Assembly (NCBI GenBank): GCA_001761425.1
Contig: CP012986.1
Coordinates: 450,001-482,000 of the forward strand
Direction: 5' to 3'
Length of the DNA stretch: 32,000 bases
DNA from: Candidatus Saccharimonadota bacterium
GTDB lineage: Archaea > Nanohalarchaeota > Nanosalinia > Nanosalinales > Nanosalinaceae
Shown here: positions 12,988 through 27,259 of the stretch, one piece after another
How the letters are laid out: each line of letters opens with the position of its first letter
Numbering within the stretch: the stretch's first letter is position 1
The notes under the pieces: model-generated
What the model saw: the letters and a program-made list of their open reading frames with translations, nothing else
Told to the model about the DNA's origin: nothing
Database searches by the model: none
Made by a program: the position numbers and the translations under genes

Positions 12988-13995
12988 ATGACTCTTATTG
13001 AAGCTGAAAACCTGGACAAGACCTTCAGAATATACAACCAGGGAGAAGGCCTTAGAGGCTACCTGAAAAGCTTTGTCAGCCGTGATTATGAAGAGATTCA
13101 TGCTGTCGAGGACCTGGATCTGGAGATCAGCGAGGGAGAGATGATCGGTTACATCGGGGCTAATGGTGCCGGAAAATCTACTACGGTCAAGATGCTGACC
13201 GGTATCCTTGAGCCTTCTTCAGGCCTGATAGAGGTCGATGGCAGGAACCCGCATGAAAACAGGAAGAAAAATGCGATGAATATTGGAGTGGTATTCGGAC
13301 AGAAGACACAGCTCTGGTGGGATCTGCCGGTGAAGGAAAGTTTCAGGCTTTTGAAAGAGATTTACGAAGTTTCGGATGAGGCCTATGATGAGAGGATCGA
13401 AGAGTTCGATGAAGTTTTACAGCTAAGTGATTTCTGGGATCAGCCTGTTAGAAAGCTCAGTCTGGGCCAGAAGATGAGATGTGAGCTTGCTGCAGCGTTT
13501 TTACATCATCCTAAGATTGTCTACCTGGATGAACCGACTATAGGCCTTGATGTAGCAGTTAAAGAACGTATCAGAGATTTTATCAGGAAGATGAACGAGG
13601 AGAAGAGTATCACGGTGATGTTGACAACGCATGATATCGGGGATATTGAGGATCTGTGTGACAGAATTGTTGTACTTGATGGAGGAAAGAAGATCTACGA
13701 TGGTCAGTTAGATGATCTGGTTGACCGTTTCTCGTCAAGGAGGCTTGTACTTGAGACGGATGACTGGATAGAGATCGAGGCCGATGGTGTGAAAGATATT
13801 CAGAAGCCGAACGGCCAGGTCGAGATAGTGTTCGACAGGGATATTATCTCCGCTGCTGACCTGATGCGTGAAGTGCTTGAGAAATACGATGTCAGCGACT
13901 TCCAGATCAAGGAGCCGGATATCGAAGCTGTTGTCAAGAAAATCTACAACGAAGGCCTTGCGGACAGAAGCAGTCAGGAAGCTGATGCTTCTTAG
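12988..13995 (+). CDS. ABC transporter ATP-binding protein (ABC-2/COG4586-like)
   Basis: Walker A GANGAGKST, signature LSLGQKMR, Walker B VYLDEPTIGLD, H-loop TTHD. Confidence 0.9.
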   Translation: MTLIEAENLDKTFRIYNQGEGLRGYLKSFVSRDYEEIHAVEDLDLEISEGEMIGYIGANGAGKSTTVKMLTGILEPSSGLIEVDGRNPHENRKKNAMNIGVVFGQKTQLWWDLPVKESFRLLKEIYEVSDEAYDERIEEFDEVLQLSDFWDQPVRKLSLGQKMRCELAAAFLHHPKIVYLDEPTIGLDVAVKERIRDFIRKMNEEKSITVMLTTHDIGDIEDLCDRIVVLDGGKKIYDGQLDDLVDRFSSRRLVLETDDWIEIEADGVKDIQKPNGQVEIVFDRDIISAADLMREVLEKYDVSDFQIKEPDIEAVVKKIYNEGLADRSSQEADAS

Positions 13996-14034
13996 ATGAA
14001 AATTCTGTAGAGATTTTTCGAGGAGTGATTATTC

Positions 14035-14817
14035 TTGGGTAAATATCTGGAGTTCGTCCGGATGGGATTCCGGGAGATGACAGCTTACAGGTTTAACGCG
14101 GTGATGTCGCTGGTCGCATCGATTCTCTACCTGGTAATGGTCTATGCTATCTGGACGGCGATCGATGCATCTGGCCAGCTTGCAGTACCGCTCTCAGGAG
14201 TCCTAACATACGTACTTCTTGGACAGGTAGTATCTAACTCTGTCTTTACAGATGTAGAAGGCTACTTATCGGAAAGGGTGCGTGAAGGAACTATAGTAAA
14301 TGAACTGAAAAGGCCTGTATCCCTCAGGCTTCAGATCTACTGCTACCTGATTGGAAAAACACTTTTCAATACTTTGACGAAAGGTCTTCCGGTACTGGTT
14401 ATAGGCCTTCTGTTCCTTGATATGCAGACGCCTTCAATGTTGAATGCTGTAGGTTTTGTGGTTGCTCTGCTTCTCAGTTTTAACCTCGTGTTTGCTTTCT
14501 CGTTCCTGACCTCTATGCTGGTTTTCTGGACGGAGATTGGCTGGGGTATCAGAGCTATGAGGTCTAATATCCAGGACGTGTTTTCAGGTGTTCTTTTCCC
14601 GCTATACCTGTTGCCTGCGAGAGTTGCTTACTTCTTTGATTTACTTCCTTTCCAGGCGATGGCTGATGGACCTATCAGGATCTTTACGATGGATGCGACA
14701 GGCATGCAGATGCTTAATATCTTCGGTTTACAGATTTTCTGGATAATCATAATCGCGGTACTGGGCGAGCTTGCCTGGAGAAAAGCCAAGAAAAAGATGA
14801 CGGTGCAGGGAGGATAG
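14035..14817 (+). CDS. ABC-2 family permease (type A, copy 1)
   Basis: Polytopic membrane protein. TTG start preceded by GGAG. Paralog of 15690-16484; shared segments include GTIVNELKRPV, SMLVFWT and KMTVQGG*. Confidence 0.8.
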   Translation: MGKYLEFVRMGFREMTAYRFNAVMSLVASILYLVMVYAIWTAIDASGQLAVPLSGVLTYVLLGQVVSNSVFTDVEGYLSERVREGTIVNELKRPVSLRLQIYCYLIGKTLFNTLTKGLPVLVIGLLFLDMQTPSMLNAVGFVVALLLSFNLVFAFSFLTSMLVFWTEIGWGIRAMRSNIQDVFSGVLFPLYLLPARVAYFFDLLPFQAMADGPIRIFTMDATGMQMLNIFGLQIFWIIIIAVLGELAWRKAKKKMTVQGG

Positions 14818-14821
14818 AAAG

Positions 14822-15664
14822 ATGTCAGAAAATCAGAGATTTTCTATGAACCCGAAACGCATGTTGTCGGGATTAAAGAAGTATCTGTCGATTTACTGGT
14901 ACTACTTCAAACAGTACTGGAAAACAAGGCTTGTCTATAAAGGAGACTTCGCCGTAGGCTTTGTAGCTCAACTGGTGAACCTGGGAGCATCTCTTGCATT
15001 CCTTACACTGCTATTTACGCAGGTTGACTCGATTAACGGCTGGAGTTTCAACGAGATGCTTTTCCTCGCCGGAATAGGAGGCTTTATCATGAATTTCCAC
15101 CACATCTTCCTGTTCAACATGTTCAGCCTGGAAGACTACGTGGTAGAAGGCAAGATGGATCGCTTCCTGGTAAGGCCTCTAAGTCCTCTGTTCCAGGTCT
15201 ACTCGGACGAGGTGTCGGATAACAATCTCTCGAAGCTGATAGCAAACTCTGCGCTGATAACTTATTCGGCGAATCAGCTAAGCCTTCAGCTTCTCACGGT
15301 TTCAAACCTGATCTATGGTGCAGCTTTTCTTATTTCAGGAGTTTTAGTCTTTGCAGCGGCTTATATGGCCTTTGCAGCCACGAGTTTCTGGACAGGGAAA
15401 AGCAGGAGCGCTATCTGGCTGATTTTCAGGCTTAGCGAGTACAGGAGATACCCTTACAGTATCTACTCCACAGCGATACAGATTGTACTTGTAACGTTGA
15501 TTCCGATAGCTTTTGCCTCGTTCTTCCCGGCAACTTACTTCCTTGGAAGAGAGGGCTGGAGAACATGGCAGTTAGCCTCTATCGCCGCAGGACCAGTACT
15601 TTTCCTGCTCTCCTACAGGTTCTGGAAGATAGGCCTCTACAATTACTCCAGCACAGGTAGTTAA
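14822..15664 (+). CDS. ABC-2 family permease (type B, copy 1)
   Basis: Polytopic membrane protein. GGGAGG Shine-Dalgarno inside the end of the upstream gene. Paralog of 16488-17294; shared segments include NGWS..E.LFLAG, RF.VRPL..LFQVY and YSSTGS*. Confidence 0.8.
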   Translation: MSENQRFSMNPKRMLSGLKKYLSIYWYYFKQYWKTRLVYKGDFAVGFVAQLVNLGASLAFLTLLFTQVDSINGWSFNEMLFLAGIGGFIMNFHHIFLFNMFSLEDYVVEGKMDRFLVRPLSPLFQVYSDEVSDNNLSKLIANSALITYSANQLSLQLLTVSNLIYGAAFLISGVLVFAAAYMAFAATSFWTGKSRSAIWLIFRLSEYRRYPYSIYSTAIQIVLVTLIPIAFASFFPATYFLGREGWRTWQLASIAAGPVLFLLSYRFWKIGLYNYSSTGS

Positions 15665-15689
15665 AATTGCTGTTGGAAAAAACTGTCCT

Positions 15690-16484
15690 GTGAAATCGAA
15701 AACTGCGAAATACTGGGAGCTGACCAAGATAGGGTTCAAGGAGGCCTCAGCCTATCGACTGGACGCAGTTACAGGCCTCGCTTCCTCACTCCTGTATATA
15801 ATCCTGTACTACTACATCTGGCAGGCAATAGCCGCAGCGGGAACGCTAGCCTCCAGTTTGTCCGCAGTCATGACCTATATCGTTGTTGCACAGGTAGTAT
15901 CGTCTACAGTGTTCATCAGCGTGGAGGGATTTATAGGAAGGAAGGTAAGACATGGAACGATAGTCAATGAATTGAAAAGACCGGTAACATTGTTCACACA
16001 GGCCTATTTCAGGAAACTCGGTGTCGCAGCGTTCCGCTCAGTGACCAGAGGCCTGCCTGTACTTGTCCTTGGTATCTTTTTCCTCCAGGTACCTGTGCCT
16101 CAAGGCTTTAACCTTGTTTATTTCTTTCTGAGCCTTTTACTGGCTTTGAATCTTGTTATACTGTTTTCCTACAGCGCTTCGATGCTGGTTTTCTGGACGA
16201 AAGTGGAGTGGAGTATCAGAGGGGTCAGGAACACAGTGCAGAAGCTTTTTTCTGGAGTGATTTTCCCGCTTTACCTCCTGCCTGAAGGCCTTTCCACGGT
16301 TTTCAGTATTTTGCCTTTCAGGTACATGGTTGATGGCCCGATTCAGATATTCCTGATGCAGAGAACAGGCCTTGAAGCTGTCAAAATGCTGGGGCTTCAG
16401 TTTGTCTGGGTAATTGTACTGTTTGGACTTGCACGTTTTATGTGGAAAAAGGCTAAGGCTAAAATGACGGTTCAGGGAGGCTAA
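15690..16484 (+). CDS. ABC-2 family permease (type A, copy 2)
   Basis: GTG start. Roughly half of residues are shared with 14035-14817 by eye. Confidence 0.8.
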   Translation: MKSKTAKYWELTKIGFKEASAYRLDAVTGLASSLLYIILYYYIWQAIAAAGTLASSLSAVMTYIVVAQVVSSTVFISVEGFIGRKVRHGTIVNELKRPVTLFTQAYFRKLGVAAFRSVTRGLPVLVLGIFFLQVPVPQGFNLVYFFLSLLLALNLVILFSYSASMLVFWTKVEWSIRGVRNTVQKLFSGVIFPLYLLPEGLSTVFSILPFRYMVDGPIQIFLMQRTGLEAVKMLGLQFVWVIVLFGLARFMWKKAKAKMTVQGG

Positions 16485-16487
16485 AGT

Positions 16488-17294
16488 ATGTTGGATGAAG
16501 TTAAACATCACTGGCAGGTCTACAGGAGCTTCTTCATCGCTTTTGTGAAGACTAAGCTGATCTATAAAACAGATTTCATCCTTGGAACTTTGAATCAGTT
16601 GGTCAGCCTTACAGCCTCTGTCGCGTTCATAGGCCTTATTTTCACACAGATTGAGAGCCTGAATGGCTGGAGTATCTACGAACTGCTGTTTTTAGCAGGG
16701 GTTTCAAGACTGATTCTGAATGTCCATGGTTTCTTCGGTTTCGGGCCTTTCTCCCTAGGCGAGCACTACATCGTGCGCGGAAGGCTTGACAGGTTCAAGG
16801 TAAGGCCTCTTAACGTCCTTTTCCAGGTGTATGGAAGCTATGTCCAGACACACGCTTTTTCCGACATCGTGGCAAGCATTTTCCTGATAGCTTACACCCT
16901 GCCCTATCTTGGTGTCACGGTAATCACGCCTCTCAACATGGTCTATTTCCTGTTCGCGGTTGTCAGCGGTGTTCTGACGATTGGCGCAGTATTTCTCGCC
17001 TTCGCCTCGACAGGTTTCTGGACTGGTAGAACTGAATCCCTTTTCCAGATATTCTTCGACCTTGCCAGCTTCAGAAAATATCCGCTTACAATCTACTCGG
17101 CACCGTTGAAGGCCTTTTTCACAGTCCTGTTTCCAGTAGCCTTTGCTTCTTTTTACCCTGTGACTTTTTTGCTTGGAAAAGAAAGCTCCGCATTTCTGGA
17201 GTTTGCGACGCTTTTCGTGGGGCCTGTATTTTACCTGGCAGCATATGGTTTCTGGAGGTATGGCCTTTCGAAGTATTCGAGTACCGGTAGCTGA
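16488..17294 (+). CDS. ABC-2 family permease (type B, copy 2)
   Basis: Paralog of 14822-15664, with GGGAGG upstream of the ATG. Confidence 0.8.
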   Translation: MLDEVKHHWQVYRSFFIAFVKTKLIYKTDFILGTLNQLVSLTASVAFIGLIFTQIESLNGWSIYELLFLAGVSRLILNVHGFFGFGPFSLGEHYIVRGRLDRFKVRPLNVLFQVYGSYVQTHAFSDIVASIFLIAYTLPYLGVTVITPLNMVYFLFAVVSGVLTIGAVFLAFASTGFWTGRTESLFQIFFDLASFRKYPLTIYSAPLKAFFTVLFPVAFASFYPVTFLLGKESSAFLEFATLFVGPVFYLAAYGFWRYGLSKYSSTGS

Positions 17295-17296
17295 TT

Positions 17297-17818
17297 TCAA
17301 GGCCTGTGCTGGGCGTCTATTCTTACTTCTGTGGCTTTTTTCTTGATTTCCAGGTCGAACTGGAAGCTGCCGTCTTCGCTTCCCAGTACGTACATGTCTG
17401 TGCCTTCAAGAGGTGTTCCCATGTATGTGACGTTTACAGAGCACTCCATCTCGTAACAGGCGTACGGATCTGAGGTTCCCTCAAATTTCAGGCAGAGGTA
17501 ATCGCCTCTAGCAGTTTCCTGTTCCGATACATAGTTAGGGATTTCCGGAGGAGGATTGCTCTTGGATTCAGATGCGTATATGCCTCTTACACCGCTGAAA
17601 GAGATTTTTTCTGTCGTCATCGAGCCTTCGCCCCTGGAGCAGTATAGGTCTGCTGTATTCCTGACGTTCTCGAATCTGTCGACTACATCGTTCCTTCCGC
17701 TGGTTTCTCCGACAGATACAAGGCTCTGAAAGGTCATGGTAAAGGTCAGCATCGCTACTACAAGGCCTCCAATTATCCAGATCCAGATTGAGGTAGAAAG
17801 GCCTTTTGAGTTTAACAT
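17297..17818 (-). CDS. type IV pilin-like protein (class III signal peptide); last gene of the operon
   Basis: N-terminus is MLNSKG/LSTSIWIWIIGGLVVAMLTF: a basic-Gly cleavage motif followed by a hydrophobic helix. Confidence 0.6.
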   Translation of the reverse strand: MLNSKGLSTSIWIWIIGGLVVAMLTFTMTFQSLVSVGETSGRNDVVDRFENVRNTADLYCSRGEGSMTTEKISFSGVRGIYASESKSNPPPEIPNYVSEQETARGDYLCLKFEGTSDPYACYEMECSVNVTYMGTPLEGTDMYVLGSEDGSFQFDLEIKKKATEVRIDAQHRP

Positions 17819-18297
17819 AGGATCACCTCTTTTCCAGTCCCTGTGAACGATATGCTATCTCCAGGTCTGTATATTATATCAGATTCTTCTTTTCCGAAGG
17901 TGAGGCCTGTCAGCCTGAGATCTTTTGCGGAGGCACAGTCCTGCCTGTAGAACAGAAGTAGTTCTCCTGAACTATCTTCGAGGCCCCATTTCCTTGCTTT
18001 AGATTCTATCATGTTCTTTTCAACTGTGAAATCTGCTGTTAATGTCTGTTCCTCCAGGTCACAGGAGTTTTTTAGCCGGTAGTAGGTTATCTGGTAGAAT
18101 TCCTGACGGTCTATTTTTTCTCCGGTGCTGTAGTCAGAGCAGTAGGGATAATCGACTTGAGGGTACACGTTTTCCAGGTTTATCTCCGTTTCTGAGGCCT
18201 CTTCTTCCAGGTTTGTGATGATTTGGAGGCCTATTCCTGTCATTATCATGACGATTATCAGGGCAGCTATCTGTTCCAGGCTCAGCTGGCCCTTCAT
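17812..18297 (-). CDS. type IV pilin-like protein (class III signal peptide)
   Basis: N-terminus is MKG/QLSLEQIAALIIVMIMTGIGL, with the QxSxE pattern typical of archaeal pilins. It overlaps neighbouring genes by 4-7 nt. Confidence 0.7.
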   Translation of the reverse strand: MKGQLSLEQIAALIIVMIMTGIGLQIITNLEEEASETEINLENVYPQVDYPYCSDYSTGEKIDRQEFYQITYYRLKNSCDLEEQTLTADFTVEKNMIESKARKWGLEDSSGELLLFYRQDCASAKDLRLTGLTFGKEESDIIYRPGDSISFTGTGKEVILC

Positions 18298-18713
18298 TTC
18301 TCCACTATCACCTTTTGGGAGGCTACCTCGTACTGGATGATGATGGAGTCTCTGTCGTATGTCGAGGCCTTGAACTCGACTTTCTCTGCTGTATCTTCAT
18401 TGAGCTCGTTTTCTATCTCCGAGCTTTCCAGGTCAAAGCTTCCGGAGTCAATTCTTGCGATGAAACAGGAGAGGTCTTCATATCCTTGTTCTAGGCTTCT
18501 CTGGTGGCAGAGTGTTATCAGGTTGGCGACTTTGCTGAGGCTGTTGCTGGATTCTACCTGTACGATTTCAAGGCCTGGATCGTCGTTGCCGTTTCCAGGT
18601 GTTGGTGTGGTGTTGTTTATCTGGTCTCTGAACTCTGTTATCATTCCGATTGATACTGCTATGACTACTAGTATTATGACAAGTTTGCCTATGTAGTCCA
18701 GTGACATTGCCAT
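18294..18713 (-). CDS. small secreted or membrane protein with an atypical pilin-like N-terminal helix
   Basis: MAMSLDYIGKLVIILVVIAVSIGMITEF. There is no clear [KR]G site, but a single N-terminal hydrophobic helix is present. Confidence 0.45.
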   Translation of the reverse strand: MAMSLDYIGKLVIILVVIAVSIGMITEFRDQINNTTPTPGNGNDDPGLEIVQVESSNSLSKVANLITLCHQRSLEQGYEDLSCFIARIDSGSFDLESSEIENELNEDTAEKVEFKASTYDRDSIIIQYEVASQKVIVEK

Positions 18714-18714
18714 C

Positions 18715-19266
18715 TTATTCGACCTCCACTCGTTGTGTGCCGGTTGTTGAAGTGTTGTATTCTATAACTATGAAGTCATCGGCAGTTATCTCTTCTCTCT
18801 CGAAATAAACCTGGTTGGACGAACCGCACGTCTCGCCGCTTCCGGACTCTAAAGCACTGTTCTCTATAGCCTCCGGGCATAGATCGTTCTCCGCAAGCTC
18901 TGAGGTGAAATCGCTTTCCGTGACAGTGTCCGGGAGGCCTTTTACATTCCAGCCCTCGCAGAACTCTGAGGTGTTGTAACCCTGGTACTGGTCGTAGCAG
19001 GATGTCACGGCGTTAGAAAGCCTGAGGTTGAATTCTTCGGCACTATCAGCCTCGATAACCTGGTAATCGACGGTACGGCCTTCACCACATCCTTTTGGAG
19101 GAGGAGAGTCCTTACCTGGGAACACGACACTGATACTATCGTAAGTGTCGCAGAAGATACCGCTTGAACCGCCGTAGTTTGAGGAAAAAGCGGCCAGGAG
19201 TACAGAGACGCCGACCAGTGCCAGTGTCATACCTCCTATAACCTTGATCCCCAGGCCTTTGCTCAT
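18715..19266 (-). CDS. type IV pilin-like protein (class III signal peptide), Cys-containing
   Basis: N-terminus is MSKG/LGIKVIGGMTLALVGVSVLLAAF. Confidence 0.6.
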   Translation of the reverse strand: MSKGLGIKVIGGMTLALVGVSVLLAAFSSNYGGSSGIFCDTYDSISVVFPGKDSPPPKGCGEGRTVDYQVIEADSAEEFNLRLSNAVTSCYDQYQGYNTSEFCEGWNVKGLPDTVTESDFTSELAENDLCPEAIENSALESGSGETCGSSNQVYFEREEITADDFIVIEYNTSTTGTQRVEVE

Positions 19267-19318
19267 AAACTGTTATCAGTACCGCTCGATTTTAAGGTTT
19301 CCATAGAAAGGAGAAAAG

Positions 19319-20221
19319 TTAAGGTGTTACAGTCATATCATAGGCAATCCAGCGACAGTTCTCAGGAACACTTGAGTCATCGCAGGCCCAGATAAACAGG
19401 CCGTAGCCACCAGGTGAAAGAGAGGAAACATTCAGCGAGGCCTTGGCTCTGAAAAGGTTTCTCTCCGTACTTCCTGTTCCCACAGCTTCTCTGGGAGAAG
19501 TTAGTTCTTCACTTTCAACATCTATGACTTCCTTGGATGAAGGAACAGGCCTCTCCATAGCAAATGCTTCTGTAAGGCCTAAATTATCTCCTATGTCGAT
19601 ACTAACCGTACCGTCCTCTGATTCTACTTCTTCAGTGTCTGATACCGGGCATGAAAGGCTTTCGCATGGATCTTTGGAGGCTTCGAAGTCGTATTCTTTG
19701 ATGCATCCTTTGCTGTCGGTCTCAGGGTTTCCGTCGCCGTCAGGGTCAAATCCAGGCCCGCAAGCTGTCCGGCAACTGCACTGTGTGCTGAAGCATGTAT
19801 CGCCCCGTGAAGGCCTGCAGATGCTGAGTGTCGATATGTTTACTGAGTTGTCTACAGGCCTGTAGGTGACTTTTACGCTGCTTTCGCCTTCTGGTATTTT
19901 TCCCTGGAATCCGAAGTTTTCTTCCGGTATTTTTTCTAGCATGTCGGATATGTTTTTCTCCGATACTGTATCGTTTGAGTATATCTTGGCCTTGAAACAG
20001 TCGTCCTGTGTTGAACGGCTTCCTTTACCTGACTGGCGCCAGCAGCTCTCAACCAGTCTTGCCATATCATCTGAGATCTCGTACACTCCGCCTGAGACTG
20101 TCTGATCCTCATCTTTTGGGAGGCTGACCTGATCCAGGCTTATATAAGCGGTAGAGACTGTTATGAAAACTATTCCGAGAATCCCGATCACCATAATCGT
20201 ATCAGAGATCTCACCTTTCAC
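19319..20221 (-). CDS. type IV pilin-like protein with a Cys-rich module and a DxDGDG motif
   Basis: N-terminus is MKG/EISDTIMVIGILGIVFITV. Contains CSCRTACGPGFDPDGDGNPETDSKGC. Confidence 0.65.
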   Translation of the reverse strand: MKGEISDTIMVIGILGIVFITVSTAYISLDQVSLPKDEDQTVSGGVYEISDDMARLVESCWRQSGKGSRSTQDDCFKAKIYSNDTVSEKNISDMLEKIPEENFGFQGKIPEGESSVKVTYRPVDNSVNISTLSICRPSRGDTCFSTQCSCRTACGPGFDPDGDGNPETDSKGCIKEYDFEASKDPCESLSCPVSDTEEVESEDGTVSIDIGDNLGLTEAFAMERPVPSSKEVIDVESEELTSPREAVGTGSTERNLFRAKASLNVSSLSPGGYGLFIWACDDSSVPENCRWIAYDMTVTP

Positions 20222-22728
20222 CGGAAGCTCACCCCCTCAGAAGGACTGTAACGTACCAGTACCTCGTGGCTCCCAGGCCTCAAAGTGAAATCCTCTACAT
20301 TGTCAGATCTCAATGCGACGCAGCTATCGCTGTTTGAGTAACACAGTGTTCTCTTCTCCACTTCTTCTACCTTCCCTATCTCGACCTGTGTAAAATTGTG
20401 GTAGAAAGGACCGAGGCCTCCAAGCTCAATGTATCTTTCTTCGCCCTCTGAGGCCTGTATATGATCGGGGTTGATGGTCTGTGTTTCTCCACATCCGTTC
20501 ACACATGAGAGTTCGAGTTCAGGGAGTTTAAGGCTGGGTGCGACAGTGTTCAAAGCTATCACCTGGATGCTTGCACCTTGGTAGGCCTTGAACTGGTTAT
20601 CTTCATCTGAGAAATCGATTTTGGAAGGTGACTGATCCCGGTCCTGGAAGACTGTCCTGCCGTTTACACCTATCATCAGGTCGTCTTCTATATCAACTTC
20701 TGTATTTCCATTGCTCTGAAGCTGGTAGGTCGTTTTCTCATCTCTTTCGATCTCTCTTGATTCGATTTCAAGGGTCTCGTCGTTGTTGATATCTGCGTAG
20801 ACTGTTACGTTTTCCCCAAATTTATTTCCGTTGGATATGGCCTTGTTGATCGCTCCGGCAAGTTTTTCCAGACTGCCTTTCCTCAGTGTTATATCAACGC
20901 TGGCAGGGGTAGTCAGTTTATCCGACTGCCTCACAGAAGCCGGGAAACGGGAAGTAAGTGAGGCCTCAAGATTTGATCCTTCTGAACCTTTTTTCTCGCC
21001 GAAACTGTATGTAACATTGTTACATGTTGCTGCGGTCTCCGAATCTCTCTCTGAAAGGCCTGAGAACTGCTCCTCAAACTTCTCCGGTATATCGTTTGTG
21101 TTCTGATACTCTATACTGTTACCTCCTGTGTTTAAGGAGACACGGCTCATAAGCTCTTTGGCATCATTCTTATCGTTATCTCCGTACTCATCGGTATCGC
21201 TGTACTCCATATCTCCTGACATCGTGTAGACGTTCACGCTCTTGTTCGCAGACAGTTCTGTCACGTTATGGACAATCTCCGTCTCGTTATCAAGAATCTC
21301 AGTTCCTTTCTTATCTCTGAAGGCCTCTCCAGAACTGTTACCTCCAGTAGGGTCCTGATCGCCGAGTAAAAACAGCATCCGGCGGTCAACGCTTTGGTTC
21401 CAGTCGTGGTTCTCAAGTATCCATTTAGAGGAGACGCCCCAGGCCTCAAGACCGTAATCCTTCGAGCTGTTATAATCTGTAAGGCCTTCGCCGCTCCACT
21501 CTGTGATTCCTTTTCCGTGAGTGCCTGTGGCTGCGTTGTTCTCGTCTGCGGAGACGCATGAAGGTACTCTGTCGCTAAAGTCGTAGTTTCCTCCTGAAAT
21601 CTGCATTGGGTTGCCTTTTCCGCTGTCAGGGGCTTCAGGCTGACCTGGTATGTAGTAACTTACGTTCGTTTTAAGGCCTCTGGCCTCCATTTTATCTACT
21701 GTGCTTGTTACTTTGTCACATAGGGCTTCCCATTCTTCATCGAAGTTGTCCGAGGCATCTGCTGTGACTGCGATCTGTGCTGTACCGTTGTACTGTGTGA
21801 CGGGAGGTACTGTGCAGGTGCTTTTTCCTCCTATGAATTTTTCCTCTCCTGCGATTTCTTCAAAGACTGATGAGTAGTCTGCTGTGACTTCGAATCTTTT
21901 TCCTTCAGTTATCTCTGCTATATCCACGTAGGCGCCTGCTCTATCGGATACAGTGTAGATCTCAACATTTTCGTTTGCTGCTTCTTCCGCCCATTCCGTT
22001 ACGTGCTTTGAAGTCGCCTTATCTGAAGTTGCAGGTTCTGTAGCAAGTATTATCAGTATCTTTCTCTTGCTGTCGTCGAAATCGAAATTATTCAATGTGT
22101 ACTGGATGGCCTTGTCCTCAGGCTCGGAGCCTCCGTTAATGGATATAGAGGCCAGCTCTGAGTTTACCTTGGACACTTCTTCTGTCAAATCAACCCTGTT
22201 ACTGATATAACTGCCAGGAGGTGTTGCGTAAGTGAATATACCGACTCTGCTCCCTTCAGGAAGCGCATCGATGAACTCCCGCGTGTTATCTTTAACCTTG
22301 TTGAGGTAGCTTCCCATGCTTCCGCTGTCATCTAGTGCAAAGACTACATCAGCTGCCTTAGTGGTCTCAGCTGGCTCAACCCCTCTCAGGTAATCCTGCT
22401 CCACCTTGACCTCGAAACCGTTCACAAAATTCTCCGCACATCCTGGCTCACGAAGATTATAATTCCTGTCCATCCTCTCCAGCTTTGTCTGATTCAACAG
22501 AAAGCTACTGCCGGAAACGCCTTCATCTACGGAAAGACATTCTGCAACAGCACTGAAATCCTCACTGGGTGAGGCCTGAAACTTTACCTGGCTCCGGTCC
22601 TCGCTAACACCTATATTGAAGTTTAGAGAACTCATGAGAAGAGACATCAGCAATCCACCGAATATCATGATCAGTATCGGCTTCATAAAAGTGCTGTACT
22701 GTCCCTTCCAGGTCCTATAAAGTCTCAT
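20218..22728 (-). CDS. large (836 aa) pilin-like protein with von Willebrand factor A domain(s); candidate tip adhesin
   Basis: N-terminus is MRLYRTWKG/QYSTFMKPILIMIFGGLLMSLLM. The MIDAS motif is DVVFALDDSGSMG (nt 22315-22350). A second, degenerate vWA-like module has IAVTADASDNF ... RRMLFLLGDQDPTGG ... VNVYTMSGD. Confidence 0.75.
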   Translation of the reverse strand: MRLYRTWKGQYSTFMKPILIMIFGGLLMSLLMSSLNFNIGVSEDRSQVKFQASPSEDFSAVAECLSVDEGVSGSSFLLNQTKLERMDRNYNLREPGCAENFVNGFEVKVEQDYLRGVEPAETTKAADVVFALDDSGSMGSYLNKVKDNTREFIDALPEGSRVGIFTYATPPGSYISNRVDLTEEVSKVNSELASISINGGSEPEDKAIQYTLNNFDFDDSKRKILIILATEPATSDKATSKHVTEWAEEAANENVEIYTVSDRAGAYVDIAEITEGKRFEVTADYSSVFEEIAGEEKFIGGKSTCTVPPVTQYNGTAQIAVTADASDNFDEEWEALCDKVTSTVDKMEARGLKTNVSYYIPGQPEAPDSGKGNPMQISGGNYDFSDRVPSCVSADENNAATGTHGKGITEWSGEGLTDYNSSKDYGLEAWGVSSKWILENHDWNQSVDRRMLFLLGDQDPTGGNSSGEAFRDKKGTEILDNETEIVHNVTELSANKSVNVYTMSGDMEYSDTDEYGDNDKNDAKELMSRVSLNTGGNSIEYQNTNDIPEKFEEQFSGLSERDSETAATCNNVTYSFGEKKGSEGSNLEASLTSRFPASVRQSDKLTTPASVDITLRKGSLEKLAGAINKAISNGNKFGENVTVYADINNDETLEIESREIERDEKTTYQLQSNGNTEVDIEDDLMIGVNGRTVFQDRDQSPSKIDFSDEDNQFKAYQGASIQVIALNTVAPSLKLPELELSCVNGCGETQTINPDHIQASEGEERYIELGGLGPFYHNFTQVEIGKVEEVEKRTLCYSNSDSCVALRSDNVEDFTLRPGSHEVLVRYSPSEGVSFR

Positions 22729-22734
22729 TATTTT

Positions 22735-23418
22735 TCAGGCCTCTATCTTGACTTTTCCGGAGAGCAGGAACAGGCCTATCAGTACTGCAGCTATTACTAT
22801 CGCTATCAGCAGGTAGTTGCTGTAGTCACTGTCCACTACTTCCTTTGTCTGATCCTCGGTACTGCTTTCAGTGTTTTCAGAACTTTCAGGCTGTGAACAG
22901 TCTTCTGGACATAGTTCCTGCTCATTCGTTGACTTCTGGCAGATTTCGTCGCCACAGGTACAGTCAACGTCTACCTCCTTTCCGTCGCAGTAAGATGTGC
23001 ATGTGTTGTCAAAGTCGCAGCAAAGGTTATCTTTCAGGTTGTAGGAGGCCTTTTCCTCGTCTTCGTAGAAGATTTTGATCTCTGTTATGTTTTTCTGGTA
23101 TTCGAGGAACAGGTTTTTCTGTATCTCTTCTTTCTCTGTTTCATAGCCTCCTTCGCTGGTCCTGACATGGTTGGTGAAGCTGATAGGAACTTTTCCATCT
23201 ATCTCGGTTTTTTTATCTGTGCTTAAGGCCTTTATGCTGAAGTTTGCTCCTACGTGTCTTAACGCTGTGGTTCTTGTTGCATCGAGGATTTTTACATTGT
23301 TTATTTTTGCGCTTTCATTGTCGTAGAAGGTTGCATCTACCAGGAACTTTTTTTCTGCGCTGGCTGCTCCTGTTAACAGTGCTAGAGCTGTTATTAGTAT
23401 CAGTATTTTTGTTTTCAT
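22735..23418 (-). CDS. Sec-secreted, C-terminally membrane-anchored Cys-rich protein
   Basis: Sec-type signal MKTKILILITALALLTGAASA/EKK. Has the Cys cluster CCDFDNTCTSYCDGKEVDVDCTCGDEICQ, an acidic S/T/E linker and the C-terminal TM segment YLLIAIVIAAVLIGLFLL. Confidence 0.65.
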   Translation of the reverse strand: MKTKILILITALALLTGAASAEKKFLVDATFYDNESAKINNVKILDATRTTALRHVGANFSIKALSTDKKTEIDGKVPISFTNHVRTSEGGYETEKEEIQKNLFLEYQKNITEIKIFYEDEEKASYNLKDNLCCDFDNTCTSYCDGKEVDVDCTCGDEICQKSTNEQELCPEDCSQPESSENTESSTEDQTKEVVDSDYSNYLLIAIVIAAVLIGLFLLSGKVKIEA

Positions 23419-24825
23419 TTAGCATCCTCCTAGGTAACTATCAAATACGTCTTGCTCCATATATGAGTAACCTGCTGGCCCGTACTGGTTCCTCTGGTCT
23501 GAATAGGACATAAGAAAATTCCTTCTATCGCTTTCAGGTTCATTGCAGTCCTCGCTGTTAGGGCCTTGGCAGGCTCCGCCTTCGTTGTTTCCAGGTGTTG
23601 ATACGTGGTAGAGGCCTGTGGAGTGTCCTGTCTCGTGTGAAGCAGTCTCCACATCACAGGAAGAGTATGTCACGCTTACAGGGGATGGAATGTTCTGTGC
23701 TTTACCGCAGATCATCCCTGTCTGGCCATTGTAGGTTATCTGGGGGCCGTCGCCTTTCGCCAGGCCTATTATCTTGTTCCAGTTGCCTACACCTAACTGG
23801 CTGTTTGCACACTGTTTCATCTTGTTGAAACAGCTGTCTCCTGTGGACACATCGCAGTTATCTATGTTACAGCTGGATATGTCCAGAACTGTTTTCTTGA
23901 TATTATGGTCTGGGTTACTGCATTGTTTGAAAGGTGATTTGGAGACGAAATAATTGAAGGCATCCTCGGCGTCGCTCTCGAAATTCCCCTGATCGGAGTA
24001 ACGAGCCGGAGTGAACACCACATTGTACCTCTCATTGTCTTTGCATTCAGTCCCGTTCCAGGAACTTCCCTGGGGACAGCACCTGTCCCCGGAGACCCCA
24101 GAGGCTGTGTAGTGAGGCCCGCTGCAGGAAAGATCAGCGCTACACTCGAAGCTCTGACTGCATTTTTCCCCATCTGCCTGAACATCTGTATAACTTTTTT
24201 TCACACATCCAAGGCCTGTCGTATCCTCGCCTGAAGTATCAGCGTTGATGAAGTCCTCAGCTTCATAATCTGGGTCACAGACTTCTGAGGCCTCATCTGA
24301 TTCAGCATCGCCAGGGCATAGACAGTCTCCCTGGGAATTGCTACAGGTCTCGCCTTTATCCGGTTGGCAGATATCGTTCACACATCTACCGTCCGTACAG
24401 AAGTTGCTGAGGCCTCCTGAACCGCATTCGCCTTCACTGAAATTGACCTTTGAACCGGTTTTGCTGACACAGATCTGGTCAGAGTCGGAGACACGAGTGT
24501 TCTCAAGACGGTGATCCAGAAAAGTCGTTGAAGAACTTTCCTCCCCTGGAATCTTGACGACCACAGTTCTTTGCTCCTGGACTGTCAGGGTATAACTGTT
24601 TACGGAAGGTTCATAAGTCGTGGAGAAACTTCCTCCAGACTCAGGCAACCCGTTTATAACACTGGAAAGCTCCTGAGAGACCTGGTTCTGCGTCGAACTG
24701 AAAAGGCCTTCACTCTGCAAATCGATGATATTACCGCCGACGAAGACAAAAGCTACCGCTACCAAAATAGTGCCTATTGCAAGCAAGGCCTCAGATATTA
24801 TAGTCATTCCCCTAGAGCTATTCAA
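23419..24825 (-). CDS. pilin-like N-terminus fused to a Cys-rich region and a metzincin (M43/pappalysin-ulilysin-like) zinc protease domain
   Basis: N-terminus is MNSSRG/MTIISEALLAIGTILVAVAFVFV. HETGHSTGLYH is an exact HExxHxxGxxH (nt 23605-23637). A downstream NFLMSYSD resembles the NFM(D/S)Y Met-turn region. Confidence 0.7.
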   Translation of the reverse strand: MNSSRGMTIISEALLAIGTILVAVAFVFVGGNIIDLQSEGLFSSTQNQVSQELSSVINGLPESGGSFSTTYEPSVNSYTLTVQEQRTVVVKIPGEESSSTTFLDHRLENTRVSDSDQICVSKTGSKVNFSEGECGSGGLSNFCTDGRCVNDICQPDKGETCSNSQGDCLCPGDAESDEASEVCDPDYEAEDFINADTSGEDTTGLGCVKKSYTDVQADGEKCSQSFECSADLSCSGPHYTASGVSGDRCCPQGSSWNGTECKDNERYNVVFTPARYSDQGNFESDAEDAFNYFVSKSPFKQCSNPDHNIKKTVLDISSCNIDNCDVSTGDSCFNKMKQCANSQLGVGNWNKIIGLAKGDGPQITYNGQTGMICGKAQNIPSPVSVTYSSCDVETASHETGHSTGLYHVSTPGNNEGGACQGPNSEDCNEPESDRRNFLMSYSDQRNQYGPAGYSYMEQDVFDSYLGGC

Positions 24826-26095
24826 CTGTCTCCACCTCTGTCTGACATGTTGAAGCTGTCCCGCTGTATGAGCAGGATTTTATAGAGGATGGAAGCGTGC
24901 TGTAAGGCTGTGCGGAGCATGAGTAGCTTCCTCCACTAGCTGAGTTTTCATTTACCTGGAAGCTGAGATCTATCTTCCATTTAAGGTTTCCGAGAGTGCT
25001 GTTAGGGACGTTTTTGAACTTTTTGTCTCTGCAGGTGAGTGTGGTATCTATCTTTGAATTTATAGATAGGCTCCAGGACTTGATACAGTTATAGTCCCAC
25101 TGGGGTTCTACACAGTCTCCTGTTGAGTTTGTCTCTGCACAGCCACATCTTACTCCATTGCTGACGTTGTTCGCGCTTTCTCCCTCGTTCACGGTTACGA
25201 TGTGGCCCGGGAACTGGTTGCCGTTTTTCCTGTTCGACGTAAAGCTGCATTCGACGCTCGTATCGTTGAAGTATTCCTGGCTGCTTTCAAGTTTTTCTCT
25301 CTCTTCTGCTAGGCCTTCCACTACAGCTTGATCCATCAATGTGCCGTGATCGGAACACATCTTCGGGCTTGGATAGTTACATTTGGAAGGTCCTGTGATA
25401 CACATACTGTTGGTCCTGGACCCTTGATCTTTCACATTGCTGAGCTGGCTCACGACCTTGTTTTTCAGGTTCTCCTGGTTCACCCATTTCTTCAGAGTCG
25501 AGTAGATATACCAGTGTCTGTTGTACTTGATATCTTTCGACAGCGTAACACTTCTCTCACTGTTCTGAAGGCCTCCTGTCTCTCTGGTAAGGTTGATCGA
25601 TTCTATCTCAACTGCCTGTGTAAAGTTATCGCTGTCCTTTGAAGCAGGAAGCTCGTTGTGGCCAGTATCCAGACATGAGGCCTTACCTATGCTGTAAACG
25701 TTGCTGTCTCTTATTCCGTGCATTTCGTTGAATCTCTCTTGCATATAATCCAGGGTGAAGTTGGAGGTCGTGTTTCTGACAACCTCTACATCTGGTACCT
25801 GTGTAGAACCTCCGCAGTACCAGTAGCGGGCTTCCTGGTCTTCTGAGCGCCTTCCAGAGTAGTTTCCGGCTTTATCACTGCCTTTCTGACCTGCATAGAA
25901 GAGACTGTTTTCTAGATAGAGCCTTACGTTTTCAAAACGGTTGTTGAACGTGTTTACCTGTGACTGCTGGATGATCTCTTGCTGGACGCCTGTGCCAGAA
26001 CTGGTAGAGGCCTTGAACCAGGAGACAGCGATCAGAGAAATTACCAGGATAATGAAGACTGCTATGAGGGTGCTGGCGCCTTTTCTATCTACCAT
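24818..26095 (-). CDS. type IV pilin-like protein (425 aa), Cys-rich
   Basis: N-terminus is MVDRKG/ASTLIAVFIILVISLIAV. Confidence 0.65.
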   Translation of the reverse strand: MVDRKGASTLIAVFIILVISLIAVSWFKASTSSGTGVQQEIIQQSQVNTFNNRFENVRLYLENSLFYAGQKGSDKAGNYSGRRSEDQEARYWYCGGSTQVPDVEVVRNTTSNFTLDYMQERFNEMHGIRDSNVYSIGKASCLDTGHNELPASKDSDNFTQAVEIESINLTRETGGLQNSERSVTLSKDIKYNRHWYIYSTLKKWVNQENLKNKVVSQLSNVKDQGSRTNSMCITGPSKCNYPSPKMCSDHGTLMDQAVVEGLAEEREKLESSQEYFNDTSVECSFTSNRKNGNQFPGHIVTVNEGESANNVSNGVRCGCAETNSTGDCVEPQWDYNCIKSWSLSINSKIDTTLTCRDKKFKNVPNSTLGNLKWKIDLSFQVNENSASGGSYSCSAQPYSTLPSSIKSCSYSGTASTCQTEVETVE

Positions 26096-26598
26096 CTCTG
26101 TATCATAACCTCCGACCTGTTCCCAGTAGCCAGCGGAAACTCAAGAGTTGAAGAGATAACTTTCCCCGGGTTATCAGGTAATTCTTCGCCGATTACAATT
26201 TTTCTGTCAGAGCTATCTCCGCAGTCAGCGGTGAAACGATAATCCGTACCTAGTGACCTGTTAAGATAGGACTCAAGGAAAGTAACGGTCTCAACTCTGA
26301 GGCCTTCGGGTTCTGATATTTTGAATGCGTATCCTTCCTCTTTCTTACCGTAATCACAGGCCTGTGAGATAACCGTGGCGATCTTCATATTGTCCTCACG
26401 TGGAATAGGGAAAGAGCGTGTGTAAAGGCCTTTAAGCTCCATTTCAGAGTTGAAGGAAACGTCTGTGGTTACCAGTGTTTCCAGGTTCTGAGCCTGGTTG
26501 CCTGACTGAGTTACAAAGAGGAAAAGTGCAAAGATAGCAGTTAGAAGGACTCCTAGAAGGGTATACATGGAGCTGGCCTGGCCCTTCCCTGTATTCAT
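26089..26598 (-). CDS. type IV pilin-like protein
   Basis: N-terminus is MNTGKG/QASSMYTLLGVLLTAIFALFLFV. Confidence 0.65.
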   Translation of the reverse strand: MNTGKGQASSMYTLLGVLLTAIFALFLFVTQSGNQAQNLETLVTTDVSFNSEMELKGLYTRSFPIPREDNMKIATVISQACDYGKKEEGYAFKISEPEGLRVETVTFLESYLNRSLGTDYRFTADCGDSSDRKIVIGEELPDNPGKVISSTLEFPLATGNRSEVMIQRW

Positions 26599-26650
26599 GG
26601 TATTAGAAGAGTCTAGTTAGAATTTAAGGTATAGGCCTTCTATTGTTTTT

Positions 26651-27217
26651 TTATTCCCCCAGGCCCTGGAAGTTCTGGCTGTACCATGTGACTTCTTCTA
26701 TTTCATCTAGTCCGCAGGTACCGATGGTTTTGTCGCTTTCTCCGTTTGGTTGGTACCATTCTGCGATGCTGTTGTTTGCCTCTTCTTCAGACTGGCCTAC
26801 TTCTGAGGAAGTGTAATAGTTTTTCATTACTTCTTTGCATCTTTCTGCGTTTAGCTGTTCCTGTCCGATTTCGCATGTGTGGACGTTGAAGCATTTTACA
26901 CCGTCTTCGCAGTAAGAATTGTATAGTCTTCCGGCGGTTTCCGATAGTGTGCCGTCTCCGTCTGCGTCATAATTGAACGTGGAAGTACAGTAGTCTATTG
27001 CTGCTGTCTGACCTCTCACGCCCTGAGCCGACTTGTACTCAGAACACTTAGACTGACAGGTACGAGAAATCTCCTCCTGCTGCAAAGTATTCTCATACTG
27101 ATCACCAGGATTATCCTGGAACTGGTTTAGGAAGGTTGAGATTACGACGCCGGCCACGACAAGTAAAATTACAAGGCCTATTATCATTTCCAGCGACTTC
27201 TGTCCCTTCCTGAACAT
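26651..27217 (-). CDS. type IV pilin-like protein; first gene of the operon and a candidate major pilin
   Basis: N-terminus is MFRKG/QKSLEMIIGLVILLVVAGVVISTF (QxSxE pattern). It is Cys-rich with a YDADGDGTLSE motif. A TATA box lies upstream. Confidence 0.7.
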   Translation of the reverse strand: MFRKGQKSLEMIIGLVILLVVAGVVISTFLNQFQDNPGDQYENTLQQEEISRTCQSKCSEYKSAQGVRGQTAAIDYCTSTFNYDADGDGTLSETAGRLYNSYCEDGVKCFNVHTCEIGQEQLNAERCKEVMKNYYTSSEVGQSEEEANNSIAEWYQPNGESDKTIGTCGLDEIEEVTWYSQNFQGLGE

Positions 27218-27239
27218 AATTAACTAAACCGAAATCCTC

Positions 27240-27249
27240 TTTTTTATAT
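27240..27249 (-). promoter_or_regulatory. TATA box of the pilin-like operon
   Basis: The minus strand reads ATATAAAAAA, 23-32 nt upstream of the ATG at 27217. It lies in the 42-nt spacer after the gltX stop. Confidence 0.5.
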
Positions 27250-27259
27250 CCTAATTAAA

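Follow-up and report, generated by a model that had tools for sequence, protein, structure and literature searches.

A putative metzincin-type protease domain behind a pilin-like N-terminus and a Cys-rich stalk in a conserved surface-protein gene cluster of Nanohaloarchaeota

Here we describe a gene for a 468-amino-acid (aa) protein in a 32,000-nucleotide (nt) stretch of contig CP012986.1 (assembly GCA_001761425.1, positions 450,001 to 482,000 of the forward strand), hereafter the window, whose first letter is position 1 of all coordinates given below without a contig name. The assembly is deposited as Candidatus Saccharimonadota bacterium and placed by GTDB in the Nanosalinaceae. Gene content of the window is archaeal (archaeal-type GluRS, PCNA, GINS, primase, TFS and XPB), and GluRS as well as the proteins of the cluster to which the gene belongs are acidic (pI 4.0-5.6). 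The 468-aa protein is laid out in four parts, namely a leader with a hydrophobic helix, a small beta head, a Cys-rich stalk and a C-terminal metzincin domain. A first-pass annotation of this DNA had proposed a class III-type N-terminus, a Cys-rich region and a metzincin module in that order, and the translation, which opens with MNSSRG and continues into a hydrophobic stretch, bears this out. The features of the gene are listed here together with what they were assigned from.

23419..24825, minus strand: whole gene of the pilin-like, Cys-rich stalk and metzincin protein, 468 aa (open reading frame list, translation, 14 homologs, syntenic position)
24808..24825, minus strand: leader peptide (M)NSSRG, TTG-initiated, with predicted prepilin-peptidase cleavage after Gly6 (homolog leaders, conservation)
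24736..24807, minus strand: hydrophobic N-terminal helix of the mature protein, with invariant Ser11-Glu12 (hydropathy, conservation, AlphaFold)
24427..24735, minus strand: rest of the pilin-like module, aa 31-133, a second helix and a seven-strand beta head (AlphaFold)
24040..24426, minus strand: Cys-rich stalk, aa 134-262, 15 Cys, including the 6-Cys mini-domain GEKC..FEC..LSC...CCPQGSSWNGTEC beside the catalytic domain (translation, ortholog Cys conservation)
23422..24039, minus strand: C-terminal metzincin-type zinc metalloprotease domain, aa 263-468 (Pfam, PDB profile, Foldseek, model confidence)
23605..23637, minus strand: zinc-binding motif HETGHSTGLYH, aa 397-407, with His397, Glu398, His401, Gly404 and His407 (translation)
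23503..23511, minus strand: Met-turn Met439-Ser-Tyr441 (translation, family alignment)
23419-23421, minus strand: stop codon of the metzincin gene

The TTG-initiated open reading frame (ORF) overlaps the end of the upstream gene, stop codon included, by 8 nt. A set of 5.8 billion proteins contained 14 homologs of the full-length protein. One of them is 99% identical and lies on a 416-kb contig, and the remaining 13, from metagenomes and metagenome-assembled genomes (MAGs), share 39-77% identity at a query coverage of 66-100%. One of the 14 bears the name Candidatus Nanohalobium, and the gene is also present in the GTDB genomes Candidatus Nanohalobium and Candidatus Nanosalina. The source is accordingly a nanohaloarchaeon, a member of the DPANN archaea that lives as an ectosymbiont on haloarchaea. 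Of the 13 further homologs (P0002-P0014), eight have gene calls that include a leader of 2-11 residues ending in KG. For the three that are called from 'MTI[IL]SE' and were checked, the upstream DNA in each case holds an in-frame leader that starts with TTG or GTG and ends in KG. Because gene callers start at 'MTIISE', database entries of the orthologs are often truncated at the N-terminus and have lost the class III-type signal; leaders missed in this way (MNKSKG, MKNVQKG) were located in the related contigs L007 (2108-2125), L008 (2030-2047) and L009 (7980-8000). A true start at Met7 of the present ORF was rejected, since the in-frame leader upstream of it is conserved among the homologs. 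Judged by this comparison, the metzincin gene is real and conserved, and its TTG start is backed by the homologs. The copy of Candidatus Nanosalina sp. J07AB43 (contig L013, 4328-5335) is only a fragment, which starts inside the pilin module, stops before any HExxH and is followed by unrelated genes; it represents either a pseudogene or an assembly or frameshift fault of an old draft genome.

As for the C-terminal domain, six-frame translation of the window yielded a single occurrence of the extended zinc motif HExxHxxGxx[HD], and 200 shuffles yielded none. In an alignment of 83 family sequences, His397, Glu398, Gly400 and His401 were invariant, the third His was present in 82, Met439 in 79 and Tyr441 in 81 of the sequences. 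Residues shared by at least 80% of the family are Leu405, His407, Cys419, Asn423, Asp426, Cys427, Met439, Tyr441, Gly449, Tyr453 and a C-terminal Cys. With Pfam, Reprolysin_5 scored 24.6 bits for the full protein and 27.5 bits for the isolated domain at a cut-off of 27. The model was matched by 36 of 42 relatives, and three orthologs exceeded curated cut-offs (P0007 with 30.4 and P0006 with 28.0 bits for Reprolysin_5, P0011 with 28.0 bits for Reprolysin_4), the Reprolysin-like, M12B-like families in question (PF13688/13583/13582/13574) being broad catch-all models. A family profile searched against the PDB returned metzincins exclusively, led by BF3526 (E-value 5.8e-6) and followed by trimerelysin, pappalysin, ulilysin and serralysin. 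Besides, a sub-profile aligned to the HEIGHALGLSH...LMSY segment of serralysin (E 9.7e-6), with both the zinc motif and the Met-turn (family consensus 'imsY') in register.

Structure prediction pointed the same way. The AlphaFold model of the full-length protein reached a mean predicted local distance difference test (pLDDT) score of 62.9, and the catalytic core at aa 261-400 scored 68-93. In the model, the core runs from a strand (267-274) through a helix (279-296), a further strand (309-313), a second helix (331-344) and four strands to the active-site helix (393-402). Using Foldseek against the PDB, the top 24 matches were all metzincins or metalloprotease domains of the ADAM type (best E 4.3e-4), and metzincins made up the majority of the 50 matches listed, among them ADAM33, snake-venom metalloproteases, fragilysin, ulilysin and BF3526. 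Predicted model and sequence together thus display what marks clan MA(M), namely a peptidase fold of beta-sheet and helices ending in the active-site helix, the extended zinc motif and the Met-turn. We conclude that the C-terminal domain, as far as its sequence tells, is a metzincin with all catalytic hallmarks (His397, Glu398, His401, His407, Met439-x-Tyr441), and under the best-supported reading of the whole protein the stalk would present it as an active enzyme.

The first-pass annotation had recognised a zinc protease of the metzincin type, and in this it holds, with Pfam, the PDB profile and Foldseek all returning metzincins. Its coordinates for HETGHSTGLYH are exact, the 'NFLMSYSD' segment it had pointed to exists and contains Met439-Ser-Tyr441, and the Met-turn and the third His were both found in the sequence and align with serralysin and the family. 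Its likening of the domain to M43 pappalysins and ulilysin, on the other hand, was not upheld. Peptidase_M43 (PF05572) gave no match to this protein at E-values up to 1, and membership was rejected. Among the 42 relatives, four matched at E<=0.01 (best 0.0028), all sub-threshold, as against the 36 for Reprolysin_5; two ortholog scores (14 and 17.5 bits) stayed below the cut-off of 23, and ulilysin came only at Foldseek rank 23 (E 0.04). The two features that had suggested M43, HExGHxxGLxH and M-x-Y, are both present and do not single out this family, because serralysins and astacins have them as well. Indeed, a Tyr two residues after the Met of the Met-turn is known from the metzincin literature, such as the reviews by Gomis-Ruth, as common to serralysins, astacins and pappalysins.

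With serralysins (M10B), astacins (M12A), pappalysins/ulilysin (M43) and adamalysins (M12B), the domain shares the HExxHxxGxxH site and the Met-turn, as well as an N-terminal subdomain of beta-sheet and helices ending in the active-site helix. Unlike them, it shows marginal similarity to any curated family (best Pfam score 27.5 bits, PDB E about 1e-5), has a signature of its own (AC-x-G-P-N-x-x-D-C between the third His and the Met-turn, followed by YGPAxY and a C-terminal Cys), lacks RTX repeats, disintegrin or LNR accessory domains, and has named members restricted to archaea of the DPANN/Altiarchaeota type. The difference from serralysins is plain despite the alignment, which covers the zinc motif and the Met-turn only: the protein stops 27 residues past the Met-turn Tyr, with no RTX/HemolysinCabind match in Pfam. 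From these comparisons, the domain is best assigned to a separate and so far uncharacterised family of metzincins, to which the Reprolysin-like models come closest in Pfam.

The spread of this family was assessed by an exhaustive phmmer search with aa 266-468. Ninety-seven representatives of clusters at 50% identity, 185-2587 aa long, carry the metzincin domain, which usually forms their very C-terminal end, and among them the module is found alone as well as behind other N-termini. Named members come from Micrarchaeota, Altiarchaeota and Nanohalobium, and every one of the annotations reads 'hypothetical'. Profile searching of the 5.8-billion-protein set with a 42-sequence domain alignment added one new protein only.

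At the other end of the protein, the N-terminus reads MNSSRG|MTIISEALLAIGTILVAVAFVFVG, that is, a basic leader of six residues ending in Arg-Gly followed by 24 hydrophobic residues, as in class III-type signals. Leaders of the homologs differ in sequence and length (2-11 aa), and their final residues are always [KR]G. Strong conservation sets in directly after the leader Gly, with Thr8, Ser11, Glu12, Ala13, Leu14, Leu15 and Gly18 invariant. The N-terminal helix is the sole hydrophobic segment of the protein (mean Kyte-Doolittle value 2.53). It spans residues 4-30 or 6-38 in two AlphaFold models and is followed by a helix at 43-59 and then seven strands (pLDDT 67-84). From this pattern we infer cleavage of the leader by a prepilin peptidase.

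Between the two ends lies the stalk, Cys-rich and of a disulfide type. The protein contains 26 Cys (5.6%), and the 16 that fall within residues 119-261 are all invariant in the 14 orthologs. The Cys richness that the first-pass annotation had noted is thus genuine, while its comparison with EGF or knottin folds found no backing: searching Pfam returned no EGF- or knottin-like hidden Markov model (HMM) for the stalk, which was modelled at pLDDT 29-51, with low confidence over aa 136-209. The 6-Cys mini-domain (GExC..EC...LxC...CCPxGxxWNGxxC) recurs ahead of the catalytic domain when the family representatives (P0015-P0110) are compared, being present in 23 of 82, this protein among them. Another recurrent pre-domain element, a helical 'WFxYLMNKTDELIGK' motif, occurs in Micrarchaeota-type members with Sec signals. 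Either the mini-domain or this motif could be a pro-segment or latency element. A 300-aa pilin-like neighbour (19319-20221, minus strand) resembles the stalk weakly, aa 134-191 aligning with aa 152-228 of the metzincin protein over the pattern C.P..G[DE]TC...C.C (BLASTP E about 0.01 in a database of 11 proteins), which suggests a stalk module shared within the cluster.

The metzincin gene is part of a larger unit, whose features and nearest neighbour are as follows.

17297..27217, minus strand: eleven-gene co-directional cluster of secreted proteins with pilin-like signals (N-terminal pattern, synteny)
20218..22728, minus strand: VWA-domain protein, 836 aa, with a KGQ and hydrophobic N-terminus, a candidate adhesin (Pfam VWA 5.2e-14)
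22735..23418, minus strand: 227-aa protein with a Sec signal, Cys-rich, with a C-terminal membrane anchor (sequence, conserved position)
12988-17294, plus strand: ABC-2 type transporter of one ATPase and four paralogous ABC2_membrane_6 permease genes, converging on the end of the cluster

Of the 57 window ORFs that reach 100 aa or more, eight begin with a [KR]G-ending leader followed by a hydrophobic stretch, and all eight are located inside the eleven-gene cluster. Gene order is kept in the Nanohaloarchaeota contigs L001, L003, L005, L007, L008 and L009, and the cluster is syntenic in all related contigs read, down to 39-45% protein identity (range 39-77%). The VWA protein has a DDSGS motif resembling a metal ion-dependent adhesion site and recalls S. 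sanguinis PilB or TadG. Directly downstream of the metzincin gene, the ATG of the 227-aa gene abuts the stop codon, and an equivalent of this gene follows the ortholog in every related locus read. The Cys-rich segment of its product reads CCDFDNTCTSYCDG...CTCGDEIC, and the protein may be a partner of the protease or an inhibitor that serves self-protection.

The upstream edge of the cluster, by contig comparison, is strain-variable. A strain of 97-98.5% identity (L001 1270-8245 versus window 26581-27259) has about 6.4 kb of additional DNA (about 4.4 kb plus 2 kb) in the interval between GluRS and the cluster, encoding a pyrophosphatase, a 724-aa polytopic membrane protein, a 71-aa protein and a 471-aa secreted protein, and the pilin-like gene next to it (188/204 aa) is only 84% identical. 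The 724-aa protein, which adjoins the cluster in related contigs, gave a sub-threshold match to T2SSF (E 7e-4, 20 bits against a required 25.2), and profile searches of NCBIfam and the PDB returned nothing for it; it may be a divergent platform protein and is treated here as a lead, not as evidence. The ABC-2 transporter stays adjacent to the cluster in those loci that extend far enough (L001, L002, L003, L005 and L008). We rejected it as a functional partner, since it lies on the opposite strand and its adjacency is indistinguishable from the general synteny of related genomes.

Comparing the parts of the protein among the 14 orthologs revealed an uneven divergence. Mean pairwise identity was 69% for the N-terminal helix region, 53% for the beta head, 57% for the Cys-rich stalk and 30% for the protease. 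In three orthologs (P0005, P0010 and P0013) the third ligand His is replaced by Asp within a 'GL[NC]DEY' motif, and two of these three have an insertion of about 60 residues; P0013 also gave a weak match to Peptidase_M6. Taken together, the alignments indicate that the protease head is under remodelling while the carrier is constant, and such a pairing of a conserved carrier with a rapidly diverging head suits a module that faces outward, towards a partner.

We interpret the protein, with a rough probability of 0.55, as a modular pilin-like surface protein of a nanohaloarchaeon, that is, a minor (probably tip) pilin or a surface-tethered protease, which would cleave extracellular protein. The precursor would enter the membrane and lose MNSSRG to an archaeal prepilin peptidase, after which the N-terminal helix would keep the mature protein in place. 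From there it would either join a type IV pilus-like filament, as a minor subunit of large size and probably at the tip, alongside the VWA adhesin and the remaining pilin-like proteins of the cluster, or stay tethered at the cell surface. The stalk would keep the protease off the cell, and extracellular protein would be cleaved there. The most attractive target would lie on the haloarchaeal host where the two cells touch, in its S-layer or some other surface protein. Of all these steps, incorporation into a filament and the nature of the target are those we infer with the least certainty. Type IV pilus machinery and a prepilin peptidase are encoded elsewhere in nanohaloarchaeal genomes (PMC6642349, PMC9563170, PMC11291902), the published nanohaloarchaeal pilus loci differ from the present cluster in being marked by CpaF, TadC and coiled-coil proteins, and gaps in both S-layers have been seen by cryo-electron tomography (cryo-ET) at the contact sites between nanohaloarchaeon and host (PMC11291902).

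Several observations weigh against this interpretation. Archaeal class III signals also serve proteins that form no filament, for example sugar-binding proteins of Sulfolobus. No model of a pilin or class III signal in Pfam or NCBIfam matched the full protein. When the 70-aa N-termini of all cluster genes were searched against both databases, the only match of this kind was one to Class_IIIsignal (E 0.23), from the first gene of the cluster (26651-27217). A profile built from 22 sequences of the N-module gave noise only and no pilin against the PDB and Pfam (EapH1 at E 0.059; DUF7266 in two members), and a separate AlphaFold model of the N-module (mean pLDDT 64) retrieved nothing significant, and no pilin, from the PDB with Foldseek. 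Archaeal pilins are poorly covered by models of pilins and class III signals (PMC6393860), and the pilin reading draws on the signal pattern, its conservation and the gene context. The window contains no gene for an assembly ATPase, a platform protein or a prepilin peptidase. On the side of the protease, the Met-turn subdomain was modelled with low confidence (aa 407-453, pLDDT <50), we identified no zymogen or latency mechanism, and some orthologs have degraded motifs, P0007 with QEIAH for HExxH (likely inactive) and P0013 without a Met-turn. The host S-layer, finally, is a reasonable but hypothetical candidate for the target.

A second possibility, to which we assign a lower though still appreciable probability, is a membrane-tethered ectoprotease that is never polymerised. 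The helix would then be an anchor only, either as an uncleaved signal-anchor or after cleavage of a class III signal as in the bindosome proteins of Sulfolobus, and the enzyme would digest environmental or host-released protein for nutrition or remodel the symbiont's own envelope. Such a protein would account for the missing pilin matches, by HMM and by fold, and for a window without pilus machinery. It also agrees with the occurrence of the same metzincin module behind ordinary Sec signals in other DPANN proteins (P0019 and P0032 of Micrarchaeota), since a module found behind Sec signal peptides needs no pilin carrier, and with the proposal that secreted M43/M64-type peptidases feed nanohaloarchaea (PMC9563170). 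However, a plain signal-anchor has no need of a [KR]G-ending leader with conservation from the very next residue. In addition, the confinement of all eight strict-pattern ORFs to one conserved, operon-like cluster with a VWA adhesin fits an assembled appendage better, and a twofold faster evolution of the enzyme than of its anchor would be surprising if it served nutrition.

The divergence of the catalytic domain bears likewise on the idea of a processing protease of the apparatus itself, whose substrates for trimming, maturation or shedding would be the VWA adhesin or the other pilin-like proteins of the cluster and not those of a host. While the tight and conserved co-location with about ten secreted proteins speaks for such a role, fixed substrates predict conservation, yet no other part of the protein varies as much as the catalytic domain, in which even the third ligand switches from His to Asp; a long Cys-rich stalk would be unneeded, too, for neighbours in the same membrane, and we therefore consider this role improbable. 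That the module is a catalytically dead, protease-derived binding domain, a metzincin fold used as an adhesin, could be argued from the ortholog with QEIAH, from the one without a Met-turn and from the non-catalytic ADAM22, whose ectodomains are among the Foldseek matches, but is highly improbable given that the catalytic H, E, H and H are intact here and in 82 of the 83 family sequences, with Met (79/83) and Tyr (81/83) largely kept as well, a retention that indicates selection for catalysis.

To place the preferred reading, a modular pilin-like protease, among known systems, bacterial modular type IV pilins are the closest comparison. PilB and PilC of S. sanguinis present a vWA and a lectin module, respectively, and peptidase modules of the S74 and M26 types have been predicted (Raynaud et al. 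2021, PMC8179133). The 468-aa protein has in common with them a Gly-ending class III-type leader, a hydrophobic alpha-1N helix, a small pilin module, a linker and a bulky functional module, and its cluster likewise encodes a vWA-bearing pilin-like protein. The division into N-module, linker and separate functional module was drawn from AlphaFold confidence and conservation, and it makes the protein a modular pilin only if the N-module is a true pilin. A location at the tip is expected because of the bulk of the module, as in the bacterial proteins. Unlike these, the protein is archaeal (DPANN), its N-module matches no pilin signature (IPR012902, Pfam), the conserved Glu stands at +6 instead of +5, the linker is a Cys-rich stalk of about 130 residues, and the metzincin module is not among the architectures named in PMC8179133. 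In the literature, we found no experimentally characterised pilin bearing a peptidase in any organism, and a full-text search returned no description of a pilin-metzincin fusion in DPANN or other archaea, nor of this locus.

Two archaeal systems offer further parallels. The sugar-binding proteins of the Sulfolobus bindosome carry a class III signal, and their placement at the surface needs a PibD-type peptidase and a type IV pilus-like assembly system. The bindosome is counted among the archaeal type IV pilus-like systems (PMC4858521). As in the present case, a large enzymatic or binding protein is equipped with a prepilin-type signal; in contrast to the metzincin protein, bindosome proteins are substrate-binding proteins of ABC transporters, are not proteases and are not found in clusters of about ten pilin-like genes. 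The SPEARE proteins of Nanohaloarchaeota, in turn, reach up to 8,553 aa and have a serine protease region, a mostly C-terminal-proximal anchor and a cytoplasmic restriction-enzyme domain (PMC6642349). Like the 468-aa protein, they are nanohaloarchaeal surface proteins that combine adhesion-type regions with a protease, and degradation of the host S-layer has been proposed for them (PMC6642349); no sequence relationship exists between the two.

A more far-reaching version of the reading, which we regard as rather doubtful, is that of a DPANN protease at the tip of a pilus beside the VWA adhesin. Once bound to the host, the filament would digest its S-layer locally, thereby opening the contact zone of about 15-20 nm seen by cryo-ET, the protease head would track S-layer variation, and the 227-aa protein would serve as inhibitor or partner. 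This version would extend to many DPANN archaea whose family copies have similar N-termini.

In summary, the present work adds an uncharacterised metzincin family that is recurrently placed behind pilin-like N-termini, and the protein described here would be the first enzyme-bearing pilin proposed in Archaea. Its conservation extends over Nanohaloarchaeota, with Nanohalobium, Nanosalina and many MAGs as carriers, and it belongs to a defined eleven-gene surface-appendage cluster. If it acts only as a tethered feeding protease, it would be an ordinary secreted metalloprotease with an unusual anchor. The question bears on how DPANN ectosymbionts pass the S-layer, for which the giant SPEARE protein with its serine protease has been the sole proposal in nanohaloarchaea so far. 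With its separable catalytic domain of about 200 aa, the 468-aa protein is a small and tractable candidate for breaching of the host envelope, and cultivated test systems exist in Ca. Nanohaloarchaeum antarcticus with Halorubrum and in Ca. Nanohalobium constans with its haloarchaeal host. If the preferred reading is true, the protease may cut host cell-surface proteins at the point of contact.

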